In this document: positions 3,513 through 32,000 of the stretch, piece by piece
Layout of the letters: each line of letters starts with the position of its first letter
Numbering within the stretch: position 1 is the stretch's first letter
IMG/VR virus record: IMGVR_UViG_3300015608_001846
Coordinates: 30,001-62,000 of that record
Length of the DNA: 32,000 bases
Reading direction: 5' to 3' (one strand)
Origin: a virus
Position numbers and translations under genes: made by a program
The notes under the pieces: model-generated
Told to the model about the DNA's origin: nothing
Database searches by the model: none
The model's input: the letters and a program-made list of their open reading frames with translations, nothing else

Positions 3513-3521
3513 TAATGAAAT

Positions 3522-7642: not shown

Positions 7643-8739
7643 CACGACCTTTTGATCAAGCGCACTCGTTCACGCGAGCCCAGGCAAAGGTGACCGTCTG
7701 GACCCTTGTGTTCCTTGATCACCACCTTGTCAGTCGTCTTGACGACCCCGACGCTTTCTTTGCACAGACGACACTGTGCACGTCGACCCACTGATTCCGT
7801 GTGGGTTTTCTTGACGGGAGGGGTCGGCTGCCCAACGTCCATCTTCAGCGTCTCGCTATCACCATCAGCTTCACCCAACGGGTCCTCCAACTGTTGGTCG
7901 CTCTTGCGAGCTCGCTTGATGTGGGTATGCAGGAATTCACGGAAACCATCAAGGTCACGGACGATGTCCGGGTGGTCCTTCATCAATTGCACGTCAGCAG
8001 CTGTCAGCTCACCAGACTTGGACAGCAGCTTGATGTAGTCGTTCATCGCAGTCAACACCAGGATCTCGACCTCATCGGGATCCTCCAGTTGCATCTTACC
8101 GATCCACTGCGCCTTCAACAAGGCCTTGTCGACCGCCTGCTTGGCGCCGGCGACAGAAAATCCAAGCTCTTGAGCGATCTCCTCGAATGAGGAACCACCG
8201 ACGTCATTCATGTTACCGATGGCTGTTGACTTGTAGGCCCGGCCCTTCTTGGGCTCGTCGTCATCATCGTCATCATCCTCAATGCCACTCATGTCAGGTT
8301 CAATCCCGGAGTACGACATGTCTGATCGCAAGCCGATCTCGGCCAACGTCTTACGAATGGAACGGCGAATCGTCTCTTCGGTCACCGGCTTGTTGCTGTC
8401 TGCGATCTTCTTCATCTCGTCCTCTGCCTGTTGCGTTTCTGCTTTGTTCTCAATGTCATCAATGACGCCCTTGATGGCATCATACAGCTTCGGCACTCGT
8501 TCATTTGGAATGCCCTTGACCATGTTGCGAAACGTGACGTCGAGCTCTTGCTGCGTCTTCGGAACAAAGTCTGGATTGATTGGGTCAGTTTCATACGCCG
8601 ACGGGTCAACGACAGGATTTACATTGACGGGTTCTTCTTCGGGCACAGTGAGATCTCCCAAGTGACCACCGTCGAGCGCGCTTCGAACAAACTCACGCAA
8701 CGCGTTGTGACTGACGACGACACCTTTCATTGGTATCAC
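7642..8739 (-). CDS. hypothetical protein with sigma-70 region-4-like HTH, poly-Asp tract and C-terminal Cys/His cluster
   Basis: 365 aa from GTG 8739, or 362 aa from ATG 8730. SSFEEIAQELGFSVAGAKQAVDKALLKAQ resembles sigma region 4.2. The protein also has an EDDDDDDDEPKK tract and a C-terminal CRLCKESVG...HKGPDGHLC cluster. Confidence 0.45.
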   Translation of the reverse strand: MIPMKGVVVSHNALREFVRSALDGGHLGDLTVPEEEPVNVNPVVDPSAYETDPINPDFVPKTQQELDVTFRNMVKGIPNERVPKLYDAIKGVIDDIENKAETQQAEDEMKKIADSNKPVTEETIRRSIRKTLAEIGLRSDMSYSGIEPDMSGIEDDDDDDDEPKKGRAYKSTAIGNMNDVGGSSFEEIAQELGFSVAGAKQAVDKALLKAQWIGKMQLEDPDEVEILVLTAMNDYIKLLSKSGELTAADVQLMKDHPDIVRDLDGFREFLHTHIKRARKSDQQLEDPLGEADGDSETLKMDVGQPTPPVKKTHTESVGRRAQCRLCKESVGVVKTTDKVVIKEHKGPDGHLCLGSRERVRLIKRS

Positions 8740-10605: not shown

Positions 10606-11144
10606 ACTGCGGCACCGCTGGCGCCGCCCTCACCCGCGCGGTCTGCAGCGGGAGCTGGAAACTCTTCAGCGGCGACGTCTTCTTTGCTCTTGCCGATCTC
10701 TAGGCCGTGTGCCTGTCGCAGCACGTCGACAAATGCATCGACCACGTCAGGCTGGTACGACTTTGCCAAAAAGTTCTTGGCTCGGCGCATCAAGGTGTTC
10801 TTGATCTCGAGAAGGCTATCATAATTCTCGATCAACCTGACAACACCATTAACGAACGATTCCATGTCGATGGCGTCGGCAGCGAGCTTACCAGGTTCAG
10901 CAACGTCTTCTGCTTTATCCTCAGCGTCTGCTTCGTTGACGAGACGACGCGTCATCTGTCGAAAATCAAATCCTTCGTTCTTTGACGACTTTGCCTCGTT
11001 CTCAAAGTCAGCAAGGTATCGATCGACCTGTGAATCGAGCGAATCTTCTTCTTCGGGTGCTGGCTCAGTCGCATCAGCCTCGTGGACAAAGGCTTCAGCG
11101 ATCATTCTCCTCAGCTCTCCCAATGTGATCTTTGTCATCTTCAC
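10602..11144 (-). CDS. acidic hypothetical protein
   Basis: 180 aa from GTG 11144 (GTGA overlap), or ATG 11138. Acidic and Ala-rich. No family recognised. Confidence 0.6.
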   Translation of the reverse strand: MKMTKITLGELRRMIAEAFVHEADATEPAPEEEDSLDSQVDRYLADFENEAKSSKNEGFDFRQMTRRLVNEADAEDKAEDVAEPGKLAADAIDMESFVNGVVRLIENYDSLLEIKNTLMRRAKNFLAKSYQPDVVDAFVDVLRQAHGLEIGKSKEDVAAEEFPAPAADRAGEGGASGAAV

Positions 11145-11863
11145 TTGAGCACCTCATTGATCGATTCTGTGCGATTGAACCGCTCTTCGATCGTTGTCCA
11201 ATTGAACTCTCGCATTTGCGCGATGAGGTAACTCTTTTTGTCGCTCAGATAGTCACGGTAGTAAGCATGTTCATGCATGTCAACAACAATGACCGGGTAG
11301 ATGCCGACCATGACATCTTGGCTGTGATTGCTGACAAACGTGTTGACATACCTTTTCAGGAACATGTGGTAACCACATATGGCCCAGCCTTGTCCCGCAG
11401 ACAACGCACAAGCGATGAAATCCTTCTGAAAATCATCGAAGGTGCCGAAGTCACGCTCCAAGCGCAAGTATGCCATAGAATCCATGGTGATTTCACTGTG
11501 TGGGTCGAAGCAGTTGGCAAAGTACAGCTCATGCAGCCACACCGAGTTGATGTTGTACGTCTCATCGAGCTTCAGCGAACGAAAGTCGCTGTGCTGTGAA
11601 CTAGCATCCTGCCTCGAGGCCGAATCGAGCTGCGCAGAGACGTTATTCAGTGTTTGAACGTAACCCGTATAAAGCGTTCGGTGAGCGTCCTTGGTCTTTT
11701 GGCTAACCAGTTCAGACACCTGGCGATATGGCTTGGGCTCTGCAACGTAGGCTTCATTTAACCCGTCGTTGGGAAACAGGTCGGCTGGCAGCTTGACACT
11801 GTCACGTAGGATCTGATCGATGTCGATGGCCTTCAGCGAGTCAGCAAGCGGTTTCTTGTTCAT
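11141..11863 (-). CDS. Fe/Mn superoxide dismutase-like protein
   Basis: 240 aa from ATG 11863 (AAGGA 6 nt upstream; the track extends to 11938, overlapping the upstream ORF). SOD-family blocks: AHRTLYTGYVQTLNN (cf. H..KHH..YV..LN), SVWLHELYF (cf. WNH..FW), GQGWAICGY (cf. GSGW.WL) and VVDMHEHAYYRDY (cf. D.WEHAYY). The Asp and both C-terminal His ligands are present. Confidence 0.6.
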   Translation of the reverse strand: MNKKPLADSLKAIDIDQILRDSVKLPADLFPNDGLNEAYVAEPKPYRQVSELVSQKTKDAHRTLYTGYVQTLNNVSAQLDSASRQDASSQHSDFRSLKLDETYNINSVWLHELYFANCFDPHSEITMDSMAYLRLERDFGTFDDFQKDFIACALSAGQGWAICGYHMFLKRYVNTFVSNHSQDVMVGIYPVIVVDMHEHAYYRDYLSDKKSYLIAQMREFNWTTIEERFNRTESINEVLK

Positions 11864-11882
11864 CGTGCATCCTTTTACGACG

Positions 11883-12158
11883 TCAGTCGACTTCGTAGTC
11901 CTTCTCAAACTCTGCAGCGTCGACGAGGAACTGTTCACCTTCAGGTGTCTTCAGGATGACGTCGCGAGGCGAAACGCTGACGACAGTGTACCGGATTTGG
12001 CTGCGCTTGTGCCTGACCTTGAAATCTGGTGCGATGATTGGCTCATCCGTTACAGGTGAATCAAGCTTGACCTCCAAAGCCTCGCTGAGGCGTCTAACGC
12101 GAGCATCCCACTCTTCGCGCATCACTCGGATGACGTCTTGTTCTTCGAGCCTCTTCAT
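11883..12158 (-). CDS. hypothetical protein
   Basis: 91 aa, ATG 12158. No family recognised. Confidence 0.55.
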   Translation of the reverse strand: MKRLEEQDVIRVMREEWDARVRRLSEALEVKLDSPVTDEPIIAPDFKVRHKRSQIRYTVVSVSPRDVILKTPEGEQFLVDAAEFEKDYEVD

Positions 12159-12729: not shown

Positions 12730-13277
12730 CAGATCCCCCTCGCTAGCTCGTGAAACCGAGCCAAGAATCGGTTCTCGGCATGCAACGGATCCCAGGGCAC
12801 GATGTTGAAGTCATAGGGTTCAAAGACGGCTGACATGCCCATCGTGCGGCCCCTGTCAATTCGCATGTCCCTAGCCTCAGTGACCGTCATACGATTGTCG
12901 ACCAATTTTACTGCGGTCGGCTCGCCTTGTGTGAGGCCGAACACGTCGCAGATCACGTTCATCAGGTGCGTCTCTGCCTCGCGGTAGAACGCAAACCCGG
13001 GATCACGCTTGACGGGTGACGGTACGTCAGTCAAGTACGCTTCTGAGGCATCGTGTAGCAGGCCCCACAACTGCAGTTCAGGCGGGCACATCATTGACAC
13101 CAACACCGAGTGCTGTGCCACCGAGTAGAACCTCATCAGGTGTCCCGCGAACCTCGCTGCGTTCGACAAGGCATGAGCGATGTCAACGATGCTGACTTCA
13201 TCCTGACGTGGGTCAAGCGGCCAGAACTTGAGTCCCGTGTACGTGGTGATGTAATCACCTCTGCGTTGCTCTTCCAT
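12729..13277 (-). CDS. HD-domain phosphohydrolase, YfbR-type 5'-deoxynucleotidase-like
   Basis: 182 aa. YSVAQHSVLVS and LLHDASEAYLTDVPSPVK closely match the E. coli YfbR block YHDASEVLTGDLPTPVK as I recall it. Confidence 0.7.
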   Translation of the reverse strand: MEEQRRGDYITTYTGLKFWPLDPRQDEVSIVDIAHALSNAARFAGHLMRFYSVAQHSVLVSMMCPPELQLWGLLHDASEAYLTDVPSPVKRDPGFAFYREAETHLMNVICDVFGLTQGEPTAVKLVDNRMTVTEARDMRIDRGRTMGMSAVFEPYDFNIVPWDPLHAENRFLARFHELARGI

Positions 13278-14412
13278 GCAATTGCTTGAATAGTAGGCTC
13301 TCTCGGCGAGCTAGTTCAAGACCAATTTCTTTGCCCACGAACCCCTCACCCACCAGGTCCTGACCTTTCACCGTCAGCTCATAGCTAGCAAATGACATCA
13401 ACATCGGGAACGATGGCAGGCCTCTGTTTCCCTGTGCATCGAACAGCTCCTCGTCAGTCACACGCAACCTGTTCTGACAACGCTTAAGTTCGAACGCTGC
13501 ATTGGTCGCATCCAGGCCTGCCAGGCCCTTGAAAAAGCACGTTCGATCGATCTCGTCAACGGTGTACTTCAAGTCGTGTAAGACCTGGCTTATCTTTTTT
13601 CGAGAATCATTAAGAATCACTGACAGGACGACAGGAACATTCGATGACTCAGGTCCAGCACTTGGCGCATGTGTGTCAGGGACGAGGCGGACATCGAGCC
13701 CCGGAAAGACCTGAGACCACATCTTGAAGCGTTCTAGAAGCGACAGATAGCAACGGCTCGACGACGAACCCGTGACGCCTTTGACAAACTCGTCATGGAT
13801 GCGTTCGGCAGCTAGTTCACTCAGGTCGTTGTCTGCTTCGATGGCACTCGCAGTCGCTGGATCGATGGAGAACCCAAAGCGAGCAGCGAACCGCAGGGCA
13901 CGCATGACACGCAATCGATCCTCACGGAAACGATCAACCGGAACGCCAACCGTTCTCACAACGTGATTCCGAAGGTCGGCCAGTCCTCCGACCAGATCTA
14001 CGACCTCATTCGTTGCAAGGTCGTAAAACAATGCATTGATCGTCAGGTCACGACGCTTGACATCTTCATCGATCGAGGTGAACGTGACATGCTCCGGTCG
14101 ACGACCCTCACCATGATCGATCCTGAAAGTCGCAATGTCGTACTCTGCGTTGGATCCAACCAACTTAACAACACCAAACGACTTACCGACAGCGGAGATC
14201 GAAAACCCATCTATGTCGTGGAGAAGTTCAATGACGTCCGTTGGGTGCAGGTTCGTCGCTAGGTCAATGTCATCGTGAGGCAAACGCATCAACGCGTCTC
14301 TGACAGCACCTCCGACGAGGTATAGCTTCGCACCTGCACGTTTGAAACGTGCAGCGATTCTATCGATGTCGCTAGATAACGAAATATCAAACCGCGTCCG
14401 TGAAGCCGACAT
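13255..14412 (-). CDS. tRNA nucleotidyltransferase (CCA-adding enzyme / poly(A) polymerase family)
   Basis: 385 aa from ATG 14412 (track start TTG 14418). Class II head-domain motifs: LYLVGGAVRDALM, DDIDLAT, ATFR, RRDLTINAL. No HD domain in this ORF. Confidence 0.85.
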   Translation of the reverse strand: MSASRTRFDISLSSDIDRIAARFKRAGAKLYLVGGAVRDALMRLPHDDIDLATNLHPTDVIELLHDIDGFSISAVGKSFGVVKLVGSNAEYDIATFRIDHGEGRRPEHVTFTSIDEDVKRRDLTINALFYDLATNEVVDLVGGLADLRNHVVRTVGVPVDRFREDRLRVMRALRFAARFGFSIDPATASAIEADNDLSELAAERIHDEFVKGVTGSSSSRCYLSLLERFKMWSQVFPGLDVRLVPDTHAPSAGPESSNVPVVLSVILNDSRKKISQVLHDLKYTVDEIDRTCFFKGLAGLDATNAAFELKRCQNRLRVTDEELFDAQGNRGLPSFPMLMSFASYELTVKGQDLVGEGFVGKEIGLELARRESLLFKQLHGRATQR

Positions 14413-14455
14413 GGACAAATGTTACCACCTTTGGGTGGCTTTTACATGTTGGTGT

Positions 14456-17033: not shown

Positions 17034-18005
17034 TCACACTCTCAGCTTCAGCGTTCGAAACAAAGGCTCGTTGATGGCCCACTCGATCGTACGTTCTAAG
17101 CCATCTGAGAAAGAGACCAGGGGCCTGTACCCAAGGACCTGTTCTGCACGAGACACATCAGCCAACGTATGCATAACGTCTCCAGCACGCCACGGGGTTG
17201 ATTCGACTGTCGCGGCCGGGAATCGTAGCCGTAGCCTGTCGATGATCTCATTGTTAGTCACGCTCTCACCACACGCAACGTTGAAGGGCGCGCCCTTCAA
17301 CTCACCGTCGAATGAACCAGCTCGGATGCATGCATCGACGACGTTATCAACGTAACACATGTCACGTGACTGCGTCCCATCTCCGTCGCTCCGCATCGGT
17401 CGACCGTCGACGATGGCCGACAACCATGCTGAGACAGCGGTGGCATAAGGCGATGATCCCAACTGGTTCGGACCAAAGACGTTGAAGAACCGAAGACACG
17501 CTGAATCTAGACCGTAGAGCTCACTGTACAGTTTGAGGTACTGTTCAATGATCAGCTTTTGCAACGCATAAGGTGACTTTGGTTGCAAGGTTGAGTCTTC
17601 GTGCGTCGCCTGTCCGGCTTCGACGCCGCCGTACACAGAACTAGACGATGCAAACACAAGCCGCTTGACGTTACTTACACACGCATCCATCAACTTTAAG
17701 GTCTTGCTAACGTTGGTCTCGTTCGTCTCTAGAGGATGCTCTACAGAGTAACTGACACGTGGCACTGCTGCCAGGTGAAAGACAACGTCGTACTGCTTGC
17801 GTTTGACAGCGTTCAGTACAGAATCAGACGCAAAGTCACACCAGTGTGCGACCGTGGACGCATCCGTCAAAAACTCCCAACGACCGTTGCTGAGGTCGTC
17901 ACAACCAAAGACCTCCCAATCATCCAGGGTCTGCAATCGGTTAAACAAGTTGCTACCGATGAACCCCGCAGCCCCTGTGACCAGCGCTCTACGCCTCTTA
18001 CGCAT
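17034..18005 (-). CDS. NAD-dependent nucleotide-sugar epimerase/dehydratase (extended SDR)
   Basis: 323 aa. Rossmann motif LVTGAAGFIGSNL, FASSSSVYG, catalytic YxxxK (SPYALQK), and RFFNVFGP. This is closest by eye to 4-epimerase-type enzymes. Confidence 0.8.
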   Translation of the reverse strand: MRKRRRALVTGAAGFIGSNLFNRLQTLDDWEVFGCDDLSNGRWEFLTDASTVAHWCDFASDSVLNAVKRKQYDVVFHLAAVPRVSYSVEHPLETNETNVSKTLKLMDACVSNVKRLVFASSSSVYGGVEAGQATHEDSTLQPKSPYALQKLIIEQYLKLYSELYGLDSACLRFFNVFGPNQLGSSPYATAVSAWLSAIVDGRPMRSDGDGTQSRDMCYVDNVVDACIRAGSFDGELKGAPFNVACGESVTNNEIIDRLRLRFPAATVESTPWRAGDVMHTLADVSRAEQVLGYRPLVSFSDGLERTIEWAINEPLFRTLKLRV

Positions 18006-23266: not shown

Positions 23267-23821
23267 TCACTGCACCTGTTCGTAATTCACGTACGTGCCG
23301 TGGCAGCCTGTCCCAACACGTACGTGACCCAAGTGTTCGCAGAAGACCAGGTACTGCGCAGTCTCGTGTTCAATGACGACGATGGTGCCGGTTTCAGTCT
23401 CACCTTTTGCACGAGAAAAGGTGACCTGGTCACCGATGCGGTGCCTTGGCGTCACGTTGTTCGAGCGGACCCAGTCTTTCACGGTCTTGCGGTGGATCGC
23501 ATAGCGTTTGGCAGCCACCTCGCTCATCAGGTCGACAAGCCGAGCGTCGACGGTCCACGTCCGCGACTCAAGCGATCGACAGATCTCATACGCATCATCG
23601 GTGAGTTCAATCGACTCGATCAGGTCAGCTCGGACGTCGCTGATCATCTCCTCATCAAAGACGGTTGAGGCCGAATTGAGCTCAGACTTCAGGTATGCAA
23701 TCACCTTGGGCAACAAGGCCTCGACGGTCTCACGAGAGACCTCGAGGTCAAAAAGCGCTGGACGTTTGGGAGCAATCATGATCGATTTTACCTCGCATGG
23801 CGCGCCATGCACCATGTGCAC
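23267..23821 (-). CDS. hypothetical protein
   Basis: 184 aa from the track start GTG 23821; ATGs at 23815 and 23779. It overlaps the end of the GIY-YIG ORF. No family recognised. Confidence 0.55.
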   Translation of the reverse strand: MHMVHGAPCEVKSIMIAPKRPALFDLEVSRETVEALLPKVIAYLKSELNSASTVFDEEMISDVRADLIESIELTDDAYEICRSLESRTWTVDARLVDLMSEVAAKRYAIHRKTVKDWVRSNNVTPRHRIGDQVTFSRAKGETETGTIVVIEHETAQYLVFCEHLGHVRVGTGCHGTYVNYEQVQ

Positions 23822-24674
23822 ACGACTTGGTTGACAGCGCCAAGCGACCGTCGATGACCCTGTTCACTGTCGATGGTCGTACACCGCACGATGTCGCAAT
23901 TGTTCGCAGATCAACGCCTTGTGCATGCAGCCCCAGGATCTCAATCACCGGAACGACGAACTGTCGACTGTCGTCGTTGGCTATGCACTTGACTGCGTAG
24001 TAAGAAATGTTCCAAGCGTCAGCAACCTGACGCGGACTGTTTCCCAATGACGATAGCTGCGCCTTGACAGATTGAACGTCGGCAGGCACAACGACAACGT
24101 TTGATCTCTTGGAACCTAGGTGAGCCAGTGATCGTCGGCGGCGGGCTTCAGTCGTTCTCATCGATTCGCACATGAGGTCTCTGTTCGAGCGCCACTGCTC
24201 AGAGCACCGTTCGCTTCTGATCGTGCGAAGTTCTGCCGTGTACGAGCTGCCCACCGCACGAGAAAGCGATCGTTTGTACTCAGGTGAAGCACGAACAATT
24301 GTCATGTCGACCTTCGATAGGGACTCCTTTACGCGCCTTGAGATTTTCTGTCGAACCTCGAGCGTCGGCGAGCTACCTCCTAAACCTCCACTCGTTTCAT
24401 TGTAGAGGCGCTCTCCGGCGTCAGAGAGTTGCTCGCACAGCGCCATTTCAAAGGCGAAGGCTGACGGTTCATCGATGAAGCTTTGGACGATCGTCAGGTC
24501 AAAATTGGCACACCCATACGTCATGATCGCACGGTGAAATGTTAACGTCGATCCCTTCATGGCGTCGCGACAGTGTCGACGCCAGCGTCTGTGTGGATGG
24601 ATCGATTTTCCGACGTACTTGTGACCATTCGTCAGATTGGTCACAACGTAGACGAATGCCTCACGTTGTGACAT
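23748..24674 (-). CDS. free-standing GIY-YIG homing endonuclease (Seg/I-TevI-like)
   Basis: 308 aa. GIY-YIG core FVYVVTNLTNGHKYVGKS, RRWRRH, FEMALCE, LYNETSGG. NUMOD3-like repeats (SPTLEVRQKISRRV, SPEYKRSLSRAV) and a C-terminal HTH (GVDLRTIATSCGVRPSTVNRVI). Confidence 0.85.
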   Translation of the reverse strand: MSQREAFVYVVTNLTNGHKYVGKSIHPHRRWRRHCRDAMKGSTLTFHRAIMTYGCANFDLTIVQSFIDEPSAFAFEMALCEQLSDAGERLYNETSGGLGGSSPTLEVRQKISRRVKESLSKVDMTIVRASPEYKRSLSRAVGSSYTAELRTIRSERCSEQWRSNRDLMCESMRTTEARRRRSLAHLGSKRSNVVVVPADVQSVKAQLSSLGNSPRQVADAWNISYYAVKCIANDDSRQFVVPVIEILGLHAQGVDLRTIATSCGVRPSTVNRVIDGRLALSTKSCAHGAWRAMRGKIDHDCSQTSSAF

Positions 24675-25317
24675 CGTTTCTCGTGAAGACAGCGGTGTTT
24701 TTCCTGTAGAAGGAGGCCAGCTTCTTGATCTTTTGAAACGATGACGTCAATGCTTCGTCGTACAAGTAGCCCCTTCCAGTTAGGATCGGCACAACTTCAT
24801 CTTTGCCGCGGCAGTTGTAATGATGACGTCCCCACTGGCCTGGTTCCGCACACGACAGGATCAACGTCTTGGGTTTGAAGGCCAGCAGGTTGTCGATGAA
24901 GGTGGACTCGAACTCCTCAGGGATGTGCTCGTAGACCTCGAGCGACACGACCAGGTCGTATGAACTTTTCGTGTCGAGTTCCGACAGCGGCTTCGTCAGA
25001 TCGTGGCACAAGTAACACTCTGGCGGGATCGCGAGCATCGCCTCCGCGCCAGTCGAAAAATCGATCCCGAGGACCTTCTTTTTCTCGACGAGGGGCACCA
25101 AAAAGTCGCCGCAACCGCAGCCTACATCGACGATCGAATCAAACTGCAGGTTCTGCTCGAGCCACTCAGCGTAGTGCGCGATGCCCTTGTCGTAATACTT
25201 CCGGTGCTTCTCGTAGAAGCCAACATCATACGTTTCCGATTCTTTCTGTGGGTCCCAACCCTTGTAGCGCTTGGACTTGGCAACCTTCTTGACGAGCTTT
25301 TGCGTGTCTTCAGACAT
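24661..25317 (-). CDS. class I SAM-dependent methyltransferase
   Basis: 218 aa. Motif I IVDVGCGCGDF, motif II VLGIDFS, and DLVVSLEVYEHI. No DNA-methyltransferase DPPY or PCQ motif seen. Confidence 0.75.
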   Translation of the reverse strand: MSEDTQKLVKKVAKSKRYKGWDPQKESETYDVGFYEKHRKYYDKGIAHYAEWLEQNLQFDSIVDVGCGCGDFLVPLVEKKKVLGIDFSTGAEAMLAIPPECYLCHDLTKPLSELDTKSSYDLVVSLEVYEHIPEEFESTFIDNLLAFKPKTLILSCAEPGQWGRHHYNCRGKDEVVPILTGRGYLYDEALTSSFQKIKKLASFYRKNTAVFTRNDVTT

Positions 25318-25403: not shown

Positions 25404-26504
25404 TCACGTTATCTCCTTCACGCGCCACATCGTGGTCGAGAACCCGTAGTCGTTGCGGTCGACCTCGCCCAACACCAGCGCATATGCCGGGAATTCCCGG
25501 ATGCCGTCCCAACCCCACGCATTCATCCGGTACGTCCGACCCTCGGGTCCCTGCACCGTCAACAGGAGGTACTGCTTGCCGTTCTTTGTCTTCTTTGGTT
25601 TGGCCTCCATGATGACAAACCAGTAGATGTCGCGCTTGTCCCAGTCATCGACTGAACGAACGCCCTTCTCTAGGAGGCGATCGATGAGCTCAGGTTCGAC
25701 CATCGTCAACACGTCGAAGCTACCGAAAGCCTCGATCTTGTGCTCAGCAAGCTCCCGGCGCGTCCACTCTTCTTCAAACTCTTCAGCCAACGCACGAGCC
25801 AGCGCATAGAAGTTCTTGCGACCCTCGTGCGGGTCCTTCTTTGATGTCCGTTTGATGAGGGTCGCATGGTCACGGATGCGCTCGACGATCTCGTCGGAAC
25901 CCTTGCGCCTGGGTACCTCCTCGGTATAGGAACCCATCAACGTCTCATGCATGTGCCTGTACGACTTGAAGACCTTGTCAGGACCGACGCACCCTAGAGA
26001 GTCAAAGGCACGGATCTTGATGAGCACCTCGAGCGCCTTGCGGTTGAACTTCGACGGGCGCCAGCTGCCGTCCTCGTTCCACAGCACGTCCTCGATCGAG
26101 GCGTACGGGCGACTGGAGACGATCTCTTCGGCGGCTGTCTGTCCGATTCCCTTGCACGACAGCAGGCTGGGCATCAACCGCTTGCCGGGCAGCACTGTCC
26201 ACCCCAGTCCGGCCTCGTTGATGTCGATGGGTACGATGGTGTAACCTAGCTGCTTCACCTCGCTGAAGGCCTTCGCTTTCTTGTCGGGCGAGTTTGACAT
26301 AGATTCGATGTAGGCTGTGATCCACTGTTCCTCGTGGTACGTCATCAACCAGGCACACCAGAACGAATCGATTGCGTACGCCACTGCGTGGCTGTTCGAC
26401 GTCAACATGCCGTTGGCAAGGTAGAACTGGTGATCTGGATGCTCGACCTCGAGGTCGAACGTCTGGTGTTTACCTACCGGAGTGATTGACTTGATGTTTG
26501 TCAT
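25404..26504 (-). CDS. dnaE: split-intein C-half (b) fused to DNA polymerase III alpha C-terminal piece (fragment 4)
   Basis: 366 aa. It begins MTNIKSITPVGKHQTFDLEVEHPDHQFYLANGMLTSN, then SHAVAYAIDSFWCAWLMTYH (DnaE block KSHaaAYa...lk.hyP). Helix-hairpin-helix-like and OB-fold-like regions follow (KRDIYWFVIMEAKPKKTKNGKQYLLLTVQGPEG). ATGA overlap with the upstream ORF. Confidence 0.85.
   Translation of the reverse strand: MTNIKSITPVGKHQTFDLEVEHPDHQFYLANGMLTSNSHAVAYAIDSFWCAWLMTYHEEQWITAYIESMSNSPDKKAKAFSEVKQLGYTIVPIDINEAGLGWTVLPGKRLMPSLLSCKGIGQTAAEEIVSSRPYASIEDVLWNEDGSWRPSKFNRKALEVLIKIRAFDSLGCVGPDKVFKSYRHMHETLMGSYTEEVPRRKGSDEIVERIRDHATLIKRTSKKDPHEGRKNFYALARALAEEFEEEWTRRELAEHKIEAFGSFDVLTMVEPELIDRLLEKGVRSVDDWDKRDIYWFVIMEAKPKKTKNGKQYLLLTVQGPEGRTYRMNAWGWDGIREFPAYALVLGEVDRNDYGFSTTMWRVKEIT
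26394..26504 (-). mobile_element. split intein b, C-terminal half (37 aa)
   Basis: Blocks F/G: TFDLEVEHPDHQFYLANGMLTSN, followed by +1 Ser. The size and pattern resemble known IntC fragments. The penultimate residue is Ser rather than His. Confidence 0.75.
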
Positions 26505-26770
26505 TTCTTGACGTCTCTGACCAATGCCTCTAGCCTCTTGGATGCCCTGCGTCGTTGGGCCTTGTCACACTGTTCGTCACAGTAATCATCGGAGGGCTCG
26601 AGTTCAACAGCCACAGGAGGGCACCGCAACCTCATCGCGTGCTGCAGAAGCTCGATGGGCGACAGGCCCATCCTGGCAGAGATGTCATTCAGCGCTTCTT
26701 CAAACGAAGGTCGCTGCATAGGCCTCTCCGATTCGATGGACGCCCGGCTTTGGATCGCGCAGGTGTTCAA
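26501..26770 (-). CDS. small hypothetical protein inside intein-b gap
   Basis: 89 aa from the track start; ATG 26719 gives 72 aa (MQRPSFEEALNDISARMGLSPIELLQHAM...). Its stop overlaps the ATG of the IntC-b ORF. Confidence 0.45.
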   Translation of the reverse strand: MNTCAIQSRASIESERPMQRPSFEEALNDISARMGLSPIELLQHAMRLRCPPVAVELEPSDDYCDEQCDKAQRRRASKRLEALVRDVKK

Positions 26771-27737
26771 AGAGCTGTTTCAGGCACTCATCACTGAACT
26801 TGCCACCGTCCTTGTACGAAAACTGGTCGTAGGAGATGCGAATCAACGTCATTTCCTGCTTGACGACAGCTTCATCAAGTTCACGGTCGCGGACCCTCGC
26901 GTTATTTAGCGTTTCATCACCTTTGATGGGTTGGAAGTGGTACTTGCCATCGAACTCAATGATGATGTTCGTGTCCCAATTCGCCAAATCAACCTGCTTT
27001 CGTCGTGATTTAGACGTGATGCACACATCATGCAAGCGTTGATTCTGCTTAAACCCGGCATCGATGCTCATGACAACGTTTGCCAACACAAGCTCGGGCT
27101 TGCTGTGCCACGTTGAGTGCATCGCCTTCACGCACTTTTCATAGAAGACGTCAAAGTTTTCTGTTCGCCAACGCGCGAGGCGTTCAGCGCGGGCAGCCAT
27201 GATTTCCGGCCGTGCCGATGTTCTTTTTGCCGTGTTTCTTGACAGCTGACGTGCTGCTTCAGTCTTGTTATTTGCTGTCATCTGAGCAGATCGACGCGCG
27301 CGTTCTTTTGGATTTGCAAGGATTGCCGCGCTGACCGCTGCTCCCATCTTGGCTTTGTACTCTGTCAGATCATCGCCACGTTCTTTGGCGCGCCTGAGCC
27401 AGGCAAAATTCTGACCACGATTCTTGAATCGAACGCTTGACGTGTCGGACGTCAATTTTGCATCAGGGAATTGCATGACGTAAGTTTCTTTGCTAACGCC
27501 ATGCGTTTGTGTCAGGTGCTTACTGAGCGTCTTTGCTTTCAATCCACACAACCTACAGGTGACACGATCGTCACCTTCTTGCGAGACGCACCCTTCGATG
27601 TGTTTCTGGCACGACGTTTTGTACTTGAAGTTGCGGCCGCATCGTTCACAACGATGCTTAGGTTCCGTTTTTGTATCAACCACAGGGGCAACATCTCCCC
27701 CGTTTCCCTTGTTCGGAACTTGTGATCCCACGTGCAC
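26700..27737 (-). CDS. zinc-finger + Vsr-like nuclease, candidate homing endonuclease (intein b gap)
   Basis: Up to 345 aa. No ATG precedes the first finger; candidate starts are GTG 27737, 27731 or 27683. C2H2-like fingers: CERCGRNFKYKTSCQKHIEGC and CRLCGLKAKTLSKHLTQTH. The C-terminal VDLANWDTNIIIEFDGKYHF...RVRDRELDEAVVKQEMTLIRISY parallels E. coli Vsr PDIVFP..AIFVHGCFWHGH...RDRRD...GWRVLIVWE. Confidence 0.65.
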   Translation of the reverse strand: MHVGSQVPNKGNGGDVAPVVDTKTEPKHRCERCGRNFKYKTSCQKHIEGCVSQEGDDRVTCRLCGLKAKTLSKHLTQTHGVSKETYVMQFPDAKLTSDTSSVRFKNRGQNFAWLRRAKERGDDLTEYKAKMGAAVSAAILANPKERARRSAQMTANNKTEAARQLSRNTAKRTSARPEIMAARAERLARWRTENFDVFYEKCVKAMHSTWHSKPELVLANVVMSIDAGFKQNQRLHDVCITSKSRRKQVDLANWDTNIIIEFDGKYHFQPIKGDETLNNARVRDRELDEAVVKQEMTLIRISYDQFSYKDGGKFSDECLKQLFEHLRDPKPGVHRIGEAYAATFV

Positions 27738-27943
27738 TTTACTTTTTCTCCGGTGTTCAGCTCAACCTCAACCAGATCAAGAACACCATGATCGTGTTTC
27801 GATTTGACAGTGACGATTACGTTTTCACCTGTCTTTTCATCGCGCGTCATGACAAGATCGCCAGCTTCAACGTGCTGAAGCTGTTTGGTTGTGATGACTC
27901 TACCATCCAAATTATAAATATTCACTAGTTCTGAAAAGTGACA
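27539..27943 (-). mobile_element. split intein b, N-terminal half
   Basis: It starts at Cys codon 27941..27943: CHFSELVNIYNLDGRVITTKQL (block A) and TWDHKF (block B, TxxH). About 100 aa look intein-like. A ~30-aa basic tail then runs on to the stop while overlapping the endonuclease ORF in another frame. Confidence 0.75.
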
Positions 27944-28315
27944 GGACTTATTGAACCCATACCCAGCGAAGTAGAGTATCTTGTCGTACAGGTTGTTCGC
28001 GACTGCCTCGGTGTAACCGTTCTTGACGCACCCCTTGACGAAGCCATCACGGGTCTCCTGAGCTGCCTTCTTGGCAGCCTCACCGCCTGAGATGCTGCGC
28101 TTCATGATGGCGCGACGCACTTCGTCGCACTTGTCCTTCGGAAAGCCGGCGACCTTTTCAGCGAGTTCCATCACTTGCTCCTGAAATATTATACAGTTAT
28201 GCACGAGAAGGCCATTTGCGAAGAAGTTGTGGTTCTTCTTGATCTGGATGTCGTACACAAGCTGTGCAGGCGCGCGTTTGATTGCGCGAATCTTGACAGG
28301 AACTACGTCAGGCAT
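27539..28315 (-). CDS. dnaE: split-intein C-half (a) + DNA polymerase III alpha fragment 3 + split-intein N-half (b)
   Basis: 258 aa from ATG 28315 (ATGCCTGA overlap with the upstream stop; alternative ATG 28342, track start TTG 28345). It begins MPDVVPVKIRAIKRAPAQLVYDIQIKKNHNFFANGLLVHN. Then comes CIIFQEQVMELAEKVAGF..VRRAIMK..FAGYGFNKS (DnaE blocks YQEQVM, RRAMGKK, FAgYGFNKS). Then CHFSELVNIYNLDGRV...KCTWDHKF. Confidence 0.85.
   Translation of the reverse strand: MPDVVPVKIRAIKRAPAQLVYDIQIKKNHNFFANGLLVHNCIIFQEQVMELAEKVAGFPKDKCDEVRRAIMKRSISGGEAAKKAAQETRDGFVKGCVKNGYTEAVANNLYDKILYFAGYGFNKSCHFSELVNIYNLDGRVITTKQLQHVEAGDLVMTRDEKTGENVIVTVKSKHDHGVLDLVEVELNTGEKVKCTWDHKFRTRETGEMLPLWLIQKRNLSIVVNDAAATSSTKRRARNTSKGASRKKVTIVSPVGCVD
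28196..28315 (-). mobile_element. split intein a, C-terminal half (40 aa)
   Basis: LVYDIQIKKNHNFFANGLLVHN followed by +1 Cys (codon 28193..28195). Blocks F/G are canonical. Confidence 0.8.
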
Positions 28316-28790
28316 CGTCCACCTCGACAATATCGAACTCATCAAAACAACACACTTCTTGATCGAGCTTGCCGTCTTTCAACCCTTCGAAAAGACCTGA
28401 ACCAGTGCTACGATTGTAGAACATCGCATCATTGTCACGATAGTCGTCAATGAGTTTCACCTCAGTCCCAGCATCGAACCATTCATCGGGACGAGAAATG
28501 TATTTGACACGCTTAATTGGCTGGAGAGTTGCAGATGAAAAGAAGCCTTCAGCCCCATCACGCATCATCTTGACGTGAACAATTCTCTCGTTAAGATGAT
28601 CTGTTTGCAGGCGTTCACCCTCGTCAACTAGCCTGATCACATTGGGACATGCAGTCGTCTTCTCTATCCATAGTGGGTCAAGAGGCGACGGATGGTGTGG
28701 ACACGCACGCCAGTCGTGTTGACGTTGACGCTCGAGCAGGCAAAACACACCTGTCAAGTGCGTGTAACAAACAACGTAATCCCTCATCAT
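28308..28790 (-). CDS. hypothetical protein inside intein-a gap
   Basis: 160 aa. ATGA overlap with the upstream ORF, and its stop overlaps the IntC-a start. No family recognised. Confidence 0.55.
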   Translation of the reverse strand: MMRDYVVCYTHLTGVFCLLERQRQHDWRACPHHPSPLDPLWIEKTTACPNVIRLVDEGERLQTDHLNERIVHVKMMRDGAEGFFSSATLQPIKRVKYISRPDEWFDAGTEVKLIDDYRDNDAMFYNRSTGSGLFEGLKDGKLDQEVCCFDEFDIVEVDDA

Positions 28791-29215
28791 TCACACTCCT
28801 GTTCGCGATGCATTAAGCACGCAGCACATATATCGCGGCCAGGTATTGACGTCCAAAATTGCTCGCGGCAATCAACACACGTTTGAGGCTGGCTCATAAG
28901 CAACTTCGTTGCTACACTGTGTGATGACATAGAACGAGACAACGCATCAGCGTCCAACACAACGCGACACGGGTTGATCTTTGTAGCTAGTGAAGATGCG
29001 CACAGTTGACACACGGGTCCGTGAACGTCAAGCACACGTTGCCCGTGATATTCAAGTTCCATTTCGTTTCCCACTTCCTCGTAAGCCCTGAACGTATCGA
29101 ACCAATCGGCGTACGTAAGGTCATCACGCTTTCCCACTTCAACATGTGACTTCATCGTGTTGATGAAGTTTTGAAATGACGTAAGCAATTCCTTCTCAAA
29201 GTCCTCGATTTTCAT
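28787..29215 (-). CDS. Cys-rich hypothetical protein inside intein-a gap
   Basis: 142 aa. Cys pairs CQLC..C and CVDC...CAAC suggest a zinc ribbon. No family recognised. Confidence 0.55.
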   Translation of the reverse strand: MKIEDFEKELLTSFQNFINTMKSHVEVGKRDDLTYADWFDTFRAYEEVGNEMELEYHGQRVLDVHGPVCQLCASSLATKINPCRVVLDADALSRSMSSHSVATKLLMSQPQTCVDCREQFWTSIPGRDICAACLMHREQECE

Positions 29216-29217
29216 GT

Positions 29218-29958
29218 CTAAATTGTCCTCAATTTGTGTGGGTAGTACAAGGCCTCAGAAGCCCACACTCGCCTGACAATGTAACCTAACATTTCTGCTG
29301 TTCTAGTATATGACTCGTCTAGACGATACTGTCGCTTCATCTTTGGCATCAATTCATGTTTGGTTGAGTTACCATGCCAATAGTCGCCATCAAACTCTAC
29401 GAGAATGTTCTCATTTGGAACGTAAAAATCAAACTCATGATTGATGCCATCAACGCGATGCTTGTGAACGACGTTGTCACCATGTATCTCAATCATCTTT
29501 GTTTTGAATGAAAGTTCAGCTTCAGAATTTCTCTTCCTCGGTTTTTGAGTTTCAAGTCCCGCGCTTGTCTTTCGAGAATGTTCTTCAAAGAACCCTGGCG
29601 TGTGTGATCTCATGTGCCAGGTCAACCCTCGTTGTCGCTTACAAATCTTTCCGCACACTTCACAAACAACAGATTTCTGCTCTTCTGTCGCTGAACAGTA
29701 TGATCGATGCGAACGCAGCGACGTGTTAGATGTGAAAACCTTGCCACACGCATCGCACGGAAATTCCCCTTCTTTCCTGACGTTCTCACGGAGTTTAGCA
29801 ACGTTGAGTTTAGCAACGTGTTCGTCTGTGAACTTTCGACCTTTGTACGTTTGACGACGCCACTCCGACAGGCACCTGATGCTACACGCAACTGAACGAT
29901 CATTTCTTGTTGAGTACGTCTTTCCGCACGTTTGACACTGCTTCTCCAGCTTGCTCAT
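29218..29958 (-). CDS. zinc-finger + Vsr-like nuclease, candidate homing endonuclease (intein a gap)
   Basis: 246 aa from ATG 29958 (track start GTG 30048). Fingers: CQTCGK..C..C, CDACGKVFTSNTSLRSHRSYC and CEVCGKICKRQRGLTWHMRSH. The C-terminal HEFDFYVPNENILVEFDGDYWHGN...RLDESYTRTAEMLGYIVRRVWASE parallels Vsr PDIVFP..IFVHGCFWHGH...RDRRD..L...GWRVLIVWE. Confidence 0.7.
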   Translation of the reverse strand: MSKLEKQCQTCGKTYSTRNDRSVACSIRCLSEWRRQTYKGRKFTDEHVAKLNVAKLRENVRKEGEFPCDACGKVFTSNTSLRSHRSYCSATEEQKSVVCEVCGKICKRQRGLTWHMRSHTPGFFEEHSRKTSAGLETQKPRKRNSEAELSFKTKMIEIHGDNVVHKHRVDGINHEFDFYVPNENILVEFDGDYWHGNSTKHELMPKMKRQYRLDESYTRTAEMLGYIVRRVWASEALYYPHKLRTI

Positions 29959-30280
29959 CTTCCAGCGCTGCTCCTGAAAGATAAGTATAGTCTTTGATCG
30001 ACACAATTTCGTCATCAAGCGTAAGTTGTCCAGCCTCAATCCAGCCACGTTGAGTCATGACGAGGTGATCAGAGGTGAGTTTAATGACACCAATGTCAGT
30101 GTCAAGCTCAATCACGTCTTTCATGCCATTGCATACTGCGGCGACAATTACATCCTGTTCGAGCTCACCAGTCTCTTCATTATACGAAGGAAGCGTGACA
30201 CCGATCATCTGATCGTCAACGATCTCTTTGATCGTGATTTCGCCTTCATCGGTCATGACCTTTGCATCGCCAGTCAAGCA
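29900..30280 (-). mobile_element. split intein a, N-terminal half
   Basis: It starts at Cys codon 30278..30280: CLTGDAKVMTDEG (block A) and LTSDHLV (block B). It is 126 aa to the stop. The last ~20 aa overlap the endonuclease ORF start at 29958. Confidence 0.8.
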
Positions 30281-30637
30281 CGAGTACGTCTTCTTCAGGA
30301 TCTCGTTGATTCGTGGGTCACCCCACTCCAGCTCCTTGCCAGCCCTTGCTTCCAAGTAAAGCTTGTCAACGTTTGCCGCGAGAGGTCCAGGTCGGTAGAT
30401 CGACGTCAGCGTCGCTATGTCAATGATGCTCTTCGGTTTGGCCTTGACGAACAGCCTTTGCGCACCTGAAGAGGTGAGCTGGAAGATGCCTGCCCACTTG
30501 GCCTTTTCATACACCTCATACGGAGATCGGTCGTTGAAGTCGATGACATCGGGAGACATGTGCCGCTCGTACCAGTCCTTGATGTCGGCGAACGTGGGTT
30601 TGCACTTCGAAATGTCAGTGACCTTGGTCGGTTTCAT
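29900..30637 (-). CDS. dnaE: DNA polymerase III alpha fragment 2 + split-intein N-half (a)
   Basis: 245 aa. ATG 30637 has its own AGGAG 3 nt upstream. VIDFNDRSPYEVYEKAKWAGIFQLTSSGAQRL and IATLTSIYRPGPL..ILKKTYS match DnaE blocks (ip.dD..t...l....t.GvFQlES.G, aLyRPGP, eTYG). Then CLTGDAKVMTDEGEITIKEI...IKLTSDHLV. Confidence 0.85.
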   Translation of the reverse strand: MKPTKVTDISKCKPTFADIKDWYERHMSPDVIDFNDRSPYEVYEKAKWAGIFQLTSSGAQRLFVKAKPKSIIDIATLTSIYRPGPLAANVDKLYLEARAGKELEWGDPRINEILKKTYSCLTGDAKVMTDEGEITIKEIVDDQMIGVTLPSYNEETGELEQDVIVAAVCNGMKDVIELDTDIGVIKLTSDHLVMTQRGWIEAGQLTLDDEIVSIKDYTYLSGAALEDEQAGEAVSNVRKDVLNKK

Positions 30638-31655
30638 GGACTCCTACGCTGGACTGTCGATCGGTCCCGTCTGGGTTTGACGATTCATCGATGGGTGCTA
30701 GCCCAGCGGGAGCGTACCGCCAGCGACACCCATCGTACACTCGACTGGCACGGATGATGTTTAGCATCGTCGACTTGCTGATCCCGAGGTGCCTCTGGGC
30801 CGCCGACGCTGAGACGAACACCGCGACGATCGATCCTTCGTCATTGATCTGGTGCACGCACTTCGAGCGGGCCGCCGACAGCAGCGCCTTCGTCTCACCA
30901 GAGAGCCTGCGACCCTTCAACGATCGTGAGATGATCGATCTTGTTTCATCTGAGTGGCCCGGGCGCTCCCGTATGGTCGAGCGCGCCCACGACCGACGAC
31001 CGTCCCCTGGAACCGTTGAGCTCGGGCGACGGCCCGACAGGATCGCAGACATGTGAGCGCGGCTGACGCCCGCTGCGCGAGCAGCATCGGACACGGAATC
31101 GTGCACGGCGACGACATTGCCGTCGAGGTCAAACTCGATGACCTGGGTGCAATTGATTCGACGGTGGTTCTGCTGGCGTTTGGCCCTGACGAGGCCCAAG
31201 CGCTCGATGCGATGGCCTGCGATCTCTTGCGCCTTCCGGCCCGAGCTCGTCGACAGCCTACCGACGATCTCAGCGGCCACGCCGAGGTACTGGGCTGCCG
31301 CTGCCGTCGACTCGAACGTCAATCGATCTCCGGCCGGCGTCCACAGCGCGATGGGCACCCGATTGATCCCCGACAGACCGGCGCCCCCTGTCGTCATGTT
31401 GCTTGCGATGTCTGACGCCAGCGGATCAGCGACGAACGTGTGAAGTTCACTGACCAGCCTCCTCTCCTCGGAAAATGCAAGTTCTTCACTGTCGGTCGAT
31501 ACCACGATGCGCCTGTCCAGGCCCAACGCTGCTGAAATTGCAGCGTGCTTCCTGTTACGTCTGACGTTCAGAACGCGTGACGGGCTTCCTTTGCCCACGT
31601 AGTATGCACGCGGCTGCTCTTCCTTCGTGTAGTCGACATATACGCAGAATTTCAT
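30615..31655 (-). CDS. GIY-YIG homing endonuclease inserted between dnaE fragments 1 and 2
   Basis: 346 aa. ATG 31655 lies in an ATGA overlap with the fragment-1 stop. GIY-YIG core CVYVDYTKEEQPRAYYVGKGS, RRNRKH, EERRLVSE. DNA-binding modules follow: IEFDLDGNVVAVHDSVSDAARAAGVSRAHMSAIL, HSDETRSIISRSLKGRRLSGETKALLSAA (NUMOD3-like) and INDEGSIVAVFVSASAAQRHLGISKSTMLNII. Confidence 0.85.
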   Translation of the reverse strand: MKFCVYVDYTKEEQPRAYYVGKGSPSRVLNVRRNRKHAAISAALGLDRRIVVSTDSEELAFSEERRLVSELHTFVADPLASDIASNMTTGGAGLSGINRVPIALWTPAGDRLTFESTAAAAQYLGVAAEIVGRLSTSSGRKAQEIAGHRIERLGLVRAKRQQNHRRINCTQVIEFDLDGNVVAVHDSVSDAARAAGVSRAHMSAILSGRRPSSTVPGDGRRSWARSTIRERPGHSDETRSIISRSLKGRRLSGETKALLSAARSKCVHQINDEGSIVAVFVSASAAQRHLGISKSTMLNIIRASRVYDGCRWRYAPAGLAPIDESSNPDGTDRQSSVGVHETDQGH

Positions 31656-32000
31656 CGATGTTCAAGCGGAAATCGGAGATCATCATCGACGGTCACAGCA
31701 GCTACAGCCTTCCAGGATCCGTCCTCGAGCATGACTTCTGCGGTGCTCTTCAACCTATGCACCTCGCCTGAAAGCTCGATCTCAACAAGTCCGACCTGTC
31801 TTTCTTTTTGGATGATGAGTTCGATTGTCCGCTCAATGAGTCGCAAAGTTTCTAGACCCAGTAGGTCGTATTTGATGAAATTGCCGATGTACTCGAGGTG
31901 CTTGAAGTTGACGCCCTCGACCCAGGGCGACTGTGGTTCGCCGCCGGAACAGATCAGTGGCATCTTCGACGGCAGGTCATCGCAGATGAGGACACCGCCG
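31652..32000 (-). CDS. dnaE: DNA polymerase III alpha fragment 1 (5' part lies beyond the window end)
   Basis: The frame is open to position 31999: GGVLICDDLPSKMPLICSGGEPQSPWVEGVNFKHLEYIGNFIKYDLLGLETLRLIERTIELI parallels E. coli HAGGVVIAP..APLY......[28 protein letters not shown]. A 49-aa non-DnaE tail follows before the stop at 31652. Confidence 0.8.
   Translation of the reverse strand, partial: GGVLICDDLPSKMPLICSGGEPQSPWVEGVNFKHLEYIGNFIKYDLLGLETLRLIERTIELIIQKERQVGLVEIELSGEVHRLKSTAEVMLEDGSWKAVAAVTVDDDLRFPLEHR

Follow-up and report, generated by a model that had tools for sequence, protein, structure and literature searches.

A broken dnaE gene in viral DNA with probable split-intein remnants on both sides of a homing-endonuclease slot

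We analysed a stretch of 32,000 nucleotides (nt) from a virus, positions 30,001 to 62,000 of the IMG/VR record IMGVR_UViG_3300015608_001846 (called the window here), in which the DNA polymerase gene dnaE is interrupted by a free-standing endonuclease gene. Sequence inspection revealed no intact intein at this break (30615..31830). The product in front of the break ends in an extra tail and the product behind it begins with a short extra head. We consider it probable that tail and head are the dead stumps of a cut-down split intein, kept as a conserved cassette with a replaceable endonuclease between them, and that they dock non-covalently.

The minus strand carries dnaE, and fragment 1 (piece 3 of the gene) extends past the window end. 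As read directly from the sequence, it ends in ...LIERTIELIIQKE followed by the 49-residue tail RQVGLVEIELSGEVHRLKSTAEVMLEDGSWKAVAAVTVDDDLRFPLEHR and a TGA codon (31654..31652), which overlaps the ATG of an open reading frame (ORF) of 346 amino acids (aa) in the form ATGA (31655..31652). Fragment 2 (piece 4) starts with the ATG at 30637, preceded by AGGAG at 30645..30641, reads MKPTKVTDISKCKPTFADIKDWYERHMSPDVIDFND... and shares 23 nt with the 3' end of the endonuclease ORF; Pfam DNA_pol3_finger begins at residue 15 of its protein. An earlier interpretation of the window from its letters alone (the sequence-only reading) had described the 49-residue tail, the ATGA overlap, the AGGAG with the ATG at 30637 and the lack of an intact intein, and the sequence confirms this description. 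The full piece 3 product is the 291-aa protein P0095, whose N-terminus is the C-intein of a further upstream split intein. No obvious Shine-Dalgarno sequence was seen upstream of the endonuclease ATG by sequence inspection, which suggests that this ORF is translationally coupled to DnaE piece 3. A promoter and terminator scan of 29800..32000 gave chance-level results only. The elements of the break and its flanks are:

31802..32000, minus strand: C-terminal native part of DnaE piece 3 (palm/thumb, Pfam DNA_pol3_alpha), cut by the window end.
31655..31801, minus strand: 49-aa tail, recognised by hhalign, library search and AlphaFold/Foldseek as what is left of the C-terminal portion of an N-intein (IntN), from the block-B region onwards to its end.
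31652..31655, minus strand: ATGA overlap of the TGA (31654..31652) with the endonuclease ATG (31655..31653).
30615..31655, minus strand: free-standing homing-endonuclease ORF, 346 aa, with NUMOD1/NUMOD3/I-TevI-type C-terminal modules and an N-terminal part that is GIY-YIG-like by motif only.
30641..30645, minus strand: AGGAG, ribosome-binding site of DnaE piece 4, within the endonuclease 3' end and 3 nt before the ATG.
30602..30637, minus strand: extra head of 12 aa, MKPTKVTDISKC, putative remnant of the first beta-strand of a C-intein (profile match, relatives).
30281..30601, minus strand: native DnaE resuming at KPTFADIKDWYERHMSPDVIDFND... (fingers start, Pfam DNA_pol3_finger), up to Cys1 of split intein a.
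29900..30280, minus strand: N-half of split intein a (CLTGD..., block B LTSDH intact), a catalytically complete contrast in the same gene.

The sequence-only reading had taken both stumps for intein remnants, and profile-profile comparison bears this out most clearly for the tail. A profile of 17 tails was aligned by hhalign to 12 N-inteins from the same gene family with a probability of 96.9% (E 1.6e-10, score 53.8), tail columns 5-48 corresponding to IntN columns 51-94, a stretch that begins shortly before block B and runs to the N-intein end. The scores of 100 column shuffles had a mean of 9.0 (standard deviation 1.8, maximum 15), and the reversed profile scored 9.1. The segment had previously been set parallel to the start of an intein, that is, to block A. 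This register also beats chance (24.3 versus 7.2 +/- 1.6 for the shuffled null, maximum 11.5), which we attribute to the internal pseudo-symmetry of the HINT fold, but the block-B register is far stronger (52.3-53.8) and also accounts for the preceding hairpin. A search of 1.84 billion representative proteins with the tail-only profile returned 448 matches at E<=1e-3. All ten matches that were sampled carry Pfam Intein_splicing, Hint or PT-HINT, their hosts including ribonucleotide reductase (RNR), RecA and DnaE, and in those checked, such as P0133, the alignment covers roughly positions 50-93 of the Intein_splicing model. Single-sequence Pfam searches touched Intein_splicing in one of 17 tails (E 0.17), so that the homology is visible to profile methods only.

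The predicted structure points in the same direction. With 26 tail homologues, AlphaFold folded the tail into a small beta domain with a predicted local distance difference test (pLDDT) of 92-97. When this was compared with the PDB by Foldseek, rank 1 was the Ssp DnaE intein (41 columns, root-mean-square deviation (rmsd) 1.8 A), and VidaL and the Npu DnaE N-intein took ranks 6 and 7. About 12 among the 50 matches listed are inteins or bacterial intein-like domains, the best intein matches covering 38-41 columns at an rmsd of 1.2-1.8 A. By profile and by predicted fold, the tail is identified as homologous to part of a HINT domain, namely the C-terminal part of an N-intein.

For the head, the best ungapped profile match among the 14 C-inteins of the family was their N-terminal strand, aligned Met to Met. 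It scored 9.75, compared with 4.70 +/- 0.92 for the shuffled null, and none of 2000 column shuffles reached this value. Coming from few positions, this result gives no more than support to a head derived from the first strand of a C-intein.

Of the chemistry of splicing, nothing is recognisable in the two stumps. The tail has no counterpart of IntN columns 1-50, which hold block A with Cys1, and no residue is conserved at the junction. At the block-B Thr position a Thr occurs in one of 27 tails, and at the His position a His occurs in none of the 27; the 12 real N-inteins of the family have both residues without exception. The heads, with 12-16 aa, end before the VYDIEV...HNF...VHN of real C-inteins and have neither blocks F/G nor the terminal Asn, which holds equally for the basic head of the window (net charge +3). 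By contrast, split inteins a and b of the same dnaE keep Cys1, TxxH, and HN/SN with the +1 nucleophile. Since all splicing chemistry is lost, no peptide bond should be made at the stump break; that splicing does not take place here is what we infer from established intein chemistry.

It might be argued that the stumps still splice, or cleave, by a non-canonical mechanism of a very small intein, as conserved extein flanks the break just as it flanks true intein sites, the HINT-derived tail shows good conservation, and some tails (L006, L013, P0124, P0128) have a sporadic Cys just before L-x-G-D. We regard this as highly improbable in view of the N-junction without a conserved nucleophile and the missing residues and blocks just described. 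Size argues against it as well: tail and head together comprise about 60 residues, whereas the real intein halves recovered measure about 91-111 aa (IntN) and 35-49 aa (IntC). The smallest inteins known to us have about 130 residues.

Relatives of the locus were gathered by one profile search and two collection scans. The same site is split in at least 15 distinct loci and in about 70 database proteins; 32 proteins end in a homologous tail of 45-50 residues, and 38 start with a head of 12-16 residues of the form M-[AS]-K-[IV]-T-S-[IV].... About 30 distinct relatives are contiguous at the site and without both stumps, reading ...IELIL.KEGN.(K)PTF.D[IV]K.WYE.H..P.VIDF.D, and the unsplit junction of the L046 type reads ...KAGNKNPTFDEV.... 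The contiguous relatives also correct the extent of the head. About 29 extra residues had been counted in the sequence-only reading, but residues 13-29 (KPTFADIKDWYERHMSP) are native DnaE, because the contiguous relatives contain this stretch, and only the 12 residues MKPTKVTDISKC are extra. Had tail and head been ordinary insertions of an unsplit DnaE, as was considered at the outset, they should be found together in an uninterrupted gene; in no relative do they share an ORF, and an intact intein at the stump site is likewise found in none. The exteins of the split loci are down to about 64-70% identical over the approximately 110 residues compared, and synonymous sites are saturated at these divergences, which makes dN/dS on the tail unsuitable.

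The content of the gap varies among these loci. An endonuclease of the GIY-YIG-like family occupies it in the window and in L009-11, L012, L034, L036 and L037. Unrelated endonuclease-like ORFs of 345-654 aa are present in L003, L025, L039, L040 and L043; the ORF of L003 matches PHROG 3339 'homing endonuclease', and in our reading the endonucleases of this group may be called 'Vsr-like'. In L035 a 217-aa ORF (3088..3741) without resemblance to either endonuclease family lies in the gap, and the fragment 2 reading frame of this locus begins LKPKNVKK.... No endonuclease ORF is found in the gaps of L002, L013 and L059 (0-290 nt): in L002 the tail stop codon is directly followed by the head ATG, and the distance from stop to start is about 40 nt in L059 and about 290 nt in L013. 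In L001 and L008 the two polymerase halves are not even neighbours. The exteins of L039 and L040 are 97% identical and their stumps near-identical, yet their gap ORFs differ (345 versus 579 aa; after ~4345), apparently as a result of a recent endonuclease replacement. When split alleles are counted, some caution is advisable, as in L005 (7097..8637, a long-read contig) several frameshifts break an otherwise contiguous dnaE; these look like assembly indel errors and not like real splits.

These comparisons speak against a recent event in which an endonuclease hit an intact or split intein at this site and deleted most of it, leaving decaying junk that the polymerase copes with or is impaired by. 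Such an invasion, one of two explanations offered in the sequence-only reading, would fit the exact filling of the gap by the endonuclease ORF with its overlapping start and stop codons. It would also fit the GC content of this ORF (0.615), the highest among the long ORFs of the window. However, the GC content at third codon positions (GC3) of the endonuclease ORF, 0.71, is ordinary and within the window range, so that GC provides no argument for a recent arrival and composition was dropped as a sign of it. The tail has kept its hydrophobic pattern along with its confidently predicted fold. The recent invasion is contradicted by the recurrence of the same truncated stumps in numerous diverged relatives, whose gaps hold either of two unrelated endonuclease families or, as in the split loci L002 and L059, no endonuclease; we give it very little credence.

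The endonuclease-free loci likewise bear on repair at the RNA level. In that case 31801..30602 would be a group I or other intron housing the endonuclease ORF, and a spliced mRNA would encode an unbroken DnaE. Phage group I introns typically house GIY-YIG/NUMOD endonucleases, and the tail is in frame with the upstream exon, as is common for the 5' parts of introns. The sequence-only reading itself had named a group I intron as contrary to its view. Rfam reports nothing at gathering score in the whole window, group I introns included, and only chance-level matches at E<=10 in 30300..32000. In the endonuclease-free relatives with 0-40 nt between stop and start, gaps so short leave no room for a ribozyme core, and the stumps are conserved as protein. 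The halves are, moreover, unlinked in some genomes, and the tail is homologous to inteins at the protein level. An intron here is thus scarcely credible.

In Pfam, the endonuclease ORF of the window itself reaches or exceeds the cut-offs of NUMOD1 (1.6e-7), I-HmuI_NUMOD-like (4e-7) and NUMOD3 (4e-4), and its match to I-TevI_DNA-bd (6e-5) stays below threshold. The ORF also matches PHROG 314 'homing endonuclease'. Pfam PF01541 (GIY-YIG) has no match in the 346-aa protein, and the L012 homologue reaches E 0.038 with 14.7 bits at a cut-off of 22.6. In an hhalign comparison with the genuine GIY-YIG ORF of the window (23748..24674) the probability was 17%, and neither phmmer nor a profile search found a match to the endonuclease among PDB sequences. 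Judged by eye, V5-Y6, Y19-x-G21, R27, E64/E70 and N86 are invariant in six homologues and follow the GIY-YIG order. With Pfam missing the family or falling below threshold, the low hhalign probability and the empty PDB searches, we call the gap ORF by its motifs only a 'GIY-YIG-like' homing endonuclease. The NUMOD/I-TevI-type DNA-binding matches of its C-terminal part and the PHROG 314 match are solid.

What the stumps may do is suggested by their charges and their joint distribution. The tails carry a mean net charge of -3.1 (window tail, also predicted as a small beta domain, -4), and in 29 of the 32 the last 25 residues are negative; the first eight residues of the heads have a mean charge of +1.55 and are positive in 36 of 38. 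Type I tails pair with 13-residue heads in six of eight cases, and type II tails with heads of 15-16 residues in all eight. Because head length follows tail type in this way, the two stumps seem to be inherited or to evolve together. For split inteins, charged antiparallel strands were proposed to bring the halves together (Dassa et al. 2009, PMC2677866), and the same kind of charged-strand pairing was proposed for the tails of NrdA in phage Aeh1 (Crona et al. 2011, PMC3045599). Conservation, the confidently folded tail, the opposite charges and the genomes with unlinked halves point, indirectly, to a docking of the two stumps on each other.

The proposed course of events would be as follows. 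A split intein beside an endonuclease slot would have been whittled down to two segments, the last ~45 residues of the N-intein becoming the tail of piece 3 and the first ~12 residues of the C-intein becoming the head of piece 4. The other four inteins of the gene would splice, so that a two-chain polymerase would result, consisting of pieces 1-3 and pieces 4-6, with the chains meeting at the palm/fingers boundary. There the acidic, self-folding tail would bind the basic head strand, in the way that corresponding split-intein parts bind each other, and would form a non-covalent clasp. The ORF in the gap would encode an exchangeable free-standing homing endonuclease, which in this genome is of the GIY-YIG-like kind, and the whole cassette would spread, or be lost, as one unit, as its patchy occurrence among close dnaE alleles suggests.

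Several points weigh against this interpretation. No Foldseek match of the tail is individually significant (all E > 1), since only about 40 residues align, and the likeness of the head to C-inteins is based on about 6-8 positions. In two AlphaFold runs, with the alignment depth taken from tails only or from heads only and no inter-chain covariation in the input, the head stayed coil (pLDDT 66-82) and did not become a strand on the tail sheet. The two halves may also associate via their own native interface, as does the core of NrdA-a and NrdA-b in Aeh1 (PMC3045599), and the tail would then have another role. Finally, the extein tree is short and poorly resolved, so that repeated precise loss of the cassette may explain its patchiness. 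The earlier proposal of a gene in pieces with decayed intein ends as docking peptides is supported with respect to origin, by profile and by fold; for docking, where AlphaFold gave no pairing, it may hold.

If the halves join by their palm-fingers contact, the intein-derived tail would be neutral baggage or would have gained a new role, for example in oligomerisation or replisome binding. Besides the AlphaFold result, the tail folding alone would agree with this, as would the only tested precedent: the Aeh1 NrdA tails are dispensable for the heterodimer and needed for higher-order assembly (PMC3045599). Nevertheless we think it unlikely, as tail and head always accompany the split and are always absent from unsplit genes, their charges are complementary, and the segments that were kept flank the split site of the parent intein, where charged antiparallel strands join the halves (PMC2677866).

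Docking by the stumps, our preferred reading, can be taken one step further. In a 'capture-only' split intein the segments flanking the endonuclease slot would be the non-covalent clasp of an essential two-chain polymerase, and tail DNA, endonuclease and head DNA would home together between dnaE alleles; we put this forward tentatively, as a possibility that falls somewhat short of even chances. In a neighbour-joining tree of about 110 extein residues, which is weakly resolved, split and unsplit alleles are intermingled, and tail types I and II each occur in several clades. Of 15 split loci, 12 have an unsplit allele as their closest extein (window and L046, 89%; L012 and L057, 94%; L025 and L026, 83%). 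Both horizontal spread by homing and repeated precise loss are possible causes of such patchiness. We favour some mobility of the cassette because its gap serves as a slot for endonucleases.

On the 322,887-nt source contig, dnaE consists of six pieces over about 11.4 kb (L081 4692..16124). Four of its five breaks are split inteins, two of them upstream of the window, and the stump break is the third. Each of the four split inteins has one to three ORFs between its halves, endonuclease-like ORFs among them. Related loci are found on IMG/VR viral contigs of 12-370 kb, many of them >100 kb, and we take the source to be a huge phage. In a tblastn search of GenBank phages, fragment 2 matched only distant DnaE proteins (<30% identity), and a close cultured relative is therefore lacking.

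Further downstream in the gene, the dnaE region 25404..30280 of the window (minus strand) holds split inteins a and b, and the gaps of the two inteins contain the following ORFs:

29218..30048, 28787..29215 and 28308..28790, minus strand: three ORFs in the gap of split intein a. Neither Pfam nor PHROG gave a match for two of them (142 and 160 aa); the remaining one encodes a C2H2 zinc-finger protein that matches endonuclease-family PHROGs, and its start overlaps the IntN-a ORF where the latter ends.
26700..27737 and 26501..26770, minus strand: ORFs in the gap of split intein b. A zinc finger of the ROS/MucR type and 'HNH/homing endonuclease' PHROG matches mark a 345-aa ORF that overlaps the 3' end of the IntN-b ORF; a small ORF of 89 aa comes next.

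The halves of inteins a and b and their endonuclease ORFs (27539..30280) have a GC3 of 0.41-0.60. That of the flanking DnaE exteins (25404..26504, 30281..30637) is clearly higher, at 0.73-0.78, and on this account the mobile inserts look compositionally foreign; the stump tail has 0.53, over 49 codons only. In some relatives (L003, 9058..9534; L014, L039, L058, L059; proteins P0009-P0011 and P0013) a further split intein is present at ...AGIFQ/C... (slash at the junction), rejoining CTGQGAQ. The window lacks such a site, so that the intein and endonuclease content of this dnaE family varies from genome to genome.

A free-standing GIY-YIG endonuclease that Pfam recognises clearly (9e-11), and that also has HTH domains, is encoded just downstream of dnaE at 23748..24674 on the minus strand. 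Its ORF overlaps a methyltransferase gene (24661..25317) at the end of the latter. The window also contains auxiliary genes that are unusual for small phages (minus strand, 11141..11938, 13255..14418, 17034..18005 and 6890..7645). Their products are an Fe/Mn superoxide dismutase, an enzyme of the CCA-adding/poly(A) polymerase family, an NAD-dependent epimerase/dehydratase and a carbon-nitrogen (nitrilase-family) hydrolase. An epimerase also adjoins dnaE in L003 and L008.

The closest precedents are the nrdA/mobE locus of Aeromonas phage Aeh1 and the fractured genes. The ribonucleotide reductase gene nrdA of Aeh1 is split by the free-standing mobE (Crona et al. 2011, PMC3045599; Friedrich et al. 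2007 as cited there); the C- and N-terminal tails of its products are essential for activity, and it was speculated that such tails are degenerate split-intein remnants (PMC3045599). Like Aeh1, the present locus has an essential replication-related gene in two ORFs with a free-standing homing endonuclease between them, and both products bear oppositely charged tails that are absent from unsplit homologues; as there, neither RNA nor protein splicing should be involved. Unlike there, the intein origin is detectable by profile comparison and fold, endonucleases of at least two families, or no endonuclease, are found in the gap, and the arrangement occurs in dozens of diverged relatives, whereas one phage was reported with the Aeh1 arrangement. 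The charge polarity is reversed too: from sequence, the C-terminal tail is acidic here and the N-terminal head basic.

In fractured genes, split inteins flank a free-standing endonuclease in environmental, probably phage, DNA, dnaE included; they carry six HINT motifs and five catalytic residues and trans-splice (Dassa et al. 2009, PMC2677866). To this type belong the remaining four breaks in our dnaE. The order is the same (host N-part with IntN, a GIY-YIG or Vsr-like endonuclease ORF, IntC with host C-part), in the same host family. By contrast, the stump break keeps part of an N-intein and one C-intein strand without catalytic residues. It has the locus plan of a fractured gene, two same-strand host ORFs with a free-standing endonuclease between, but not the complete split-intein halves with all splicing motifs that belong to the definition (PMC2677866). 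Nor does it fit the definition of an intein, as partial HINT homology is present but a Cys/Ser block A, a block B with TxxH and blocks F/G are missing. It does conform to a gene in pieces, with stumps on both split products and none in unsplit homologues.

Two further systems offer themselves for comparison. Cyanobacterial DnaE is naturally split by the Ssp/Npu split intein, for which a charged-strand assembly model exists (as summarised in PMC2677866). As there, the polymerase alpha subunit is made from two genes, with the halves unlinked in some of our relatives, and the halves may find each other via oppositely charged intein-derived segments. The cyanobacterial halves splice, whereas here the chemistry is absent, any association would be permanently non-covalent, and the split site is the palm/fingers boundary. 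Shah et al. (2013) have reportedly put forward a 'capture and collapse' model of split-intein assembly. The family B DNA polymerase of Methanothermobacter is encoded by two genes without an intein, reportedly split where relatives carry inteins, and we know of no description of intein-derived stumps or an associated endonuclease for it. It resembles the present case as a replicative polymerase made of two polypeptides, and belongs to another family and another domain of life. A prior description of natural intein remnants as docking modules was not found in the literature, our coverage of which was incomplete.

The idea of degenerate split-intein tails (Crona et al. 2011) lacked sequence evidence, which this locus family now supplies, with a HINT-derived tail beside four working split inteins in the same gene. 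With intact split inteins, stumps with and without an endonuclease, unlinked halves and clean unsplit alleles, the family forms a natural series on how an intein can be lost without the death of its host gene, and it lends itself to testing which portion of a split intein is enough for association. For annotation it serves as a warning that short dnaE ORFs in the genomes of huge phages are not pseudogenes. If the stumps bind, nature would have provided small, orthogonal heterodimerisation tags that do not splice. If the capture-only interpretation is true, the cassette would be a mobile element that splits its host gene and supplies a protein-level glue instead of splicing.

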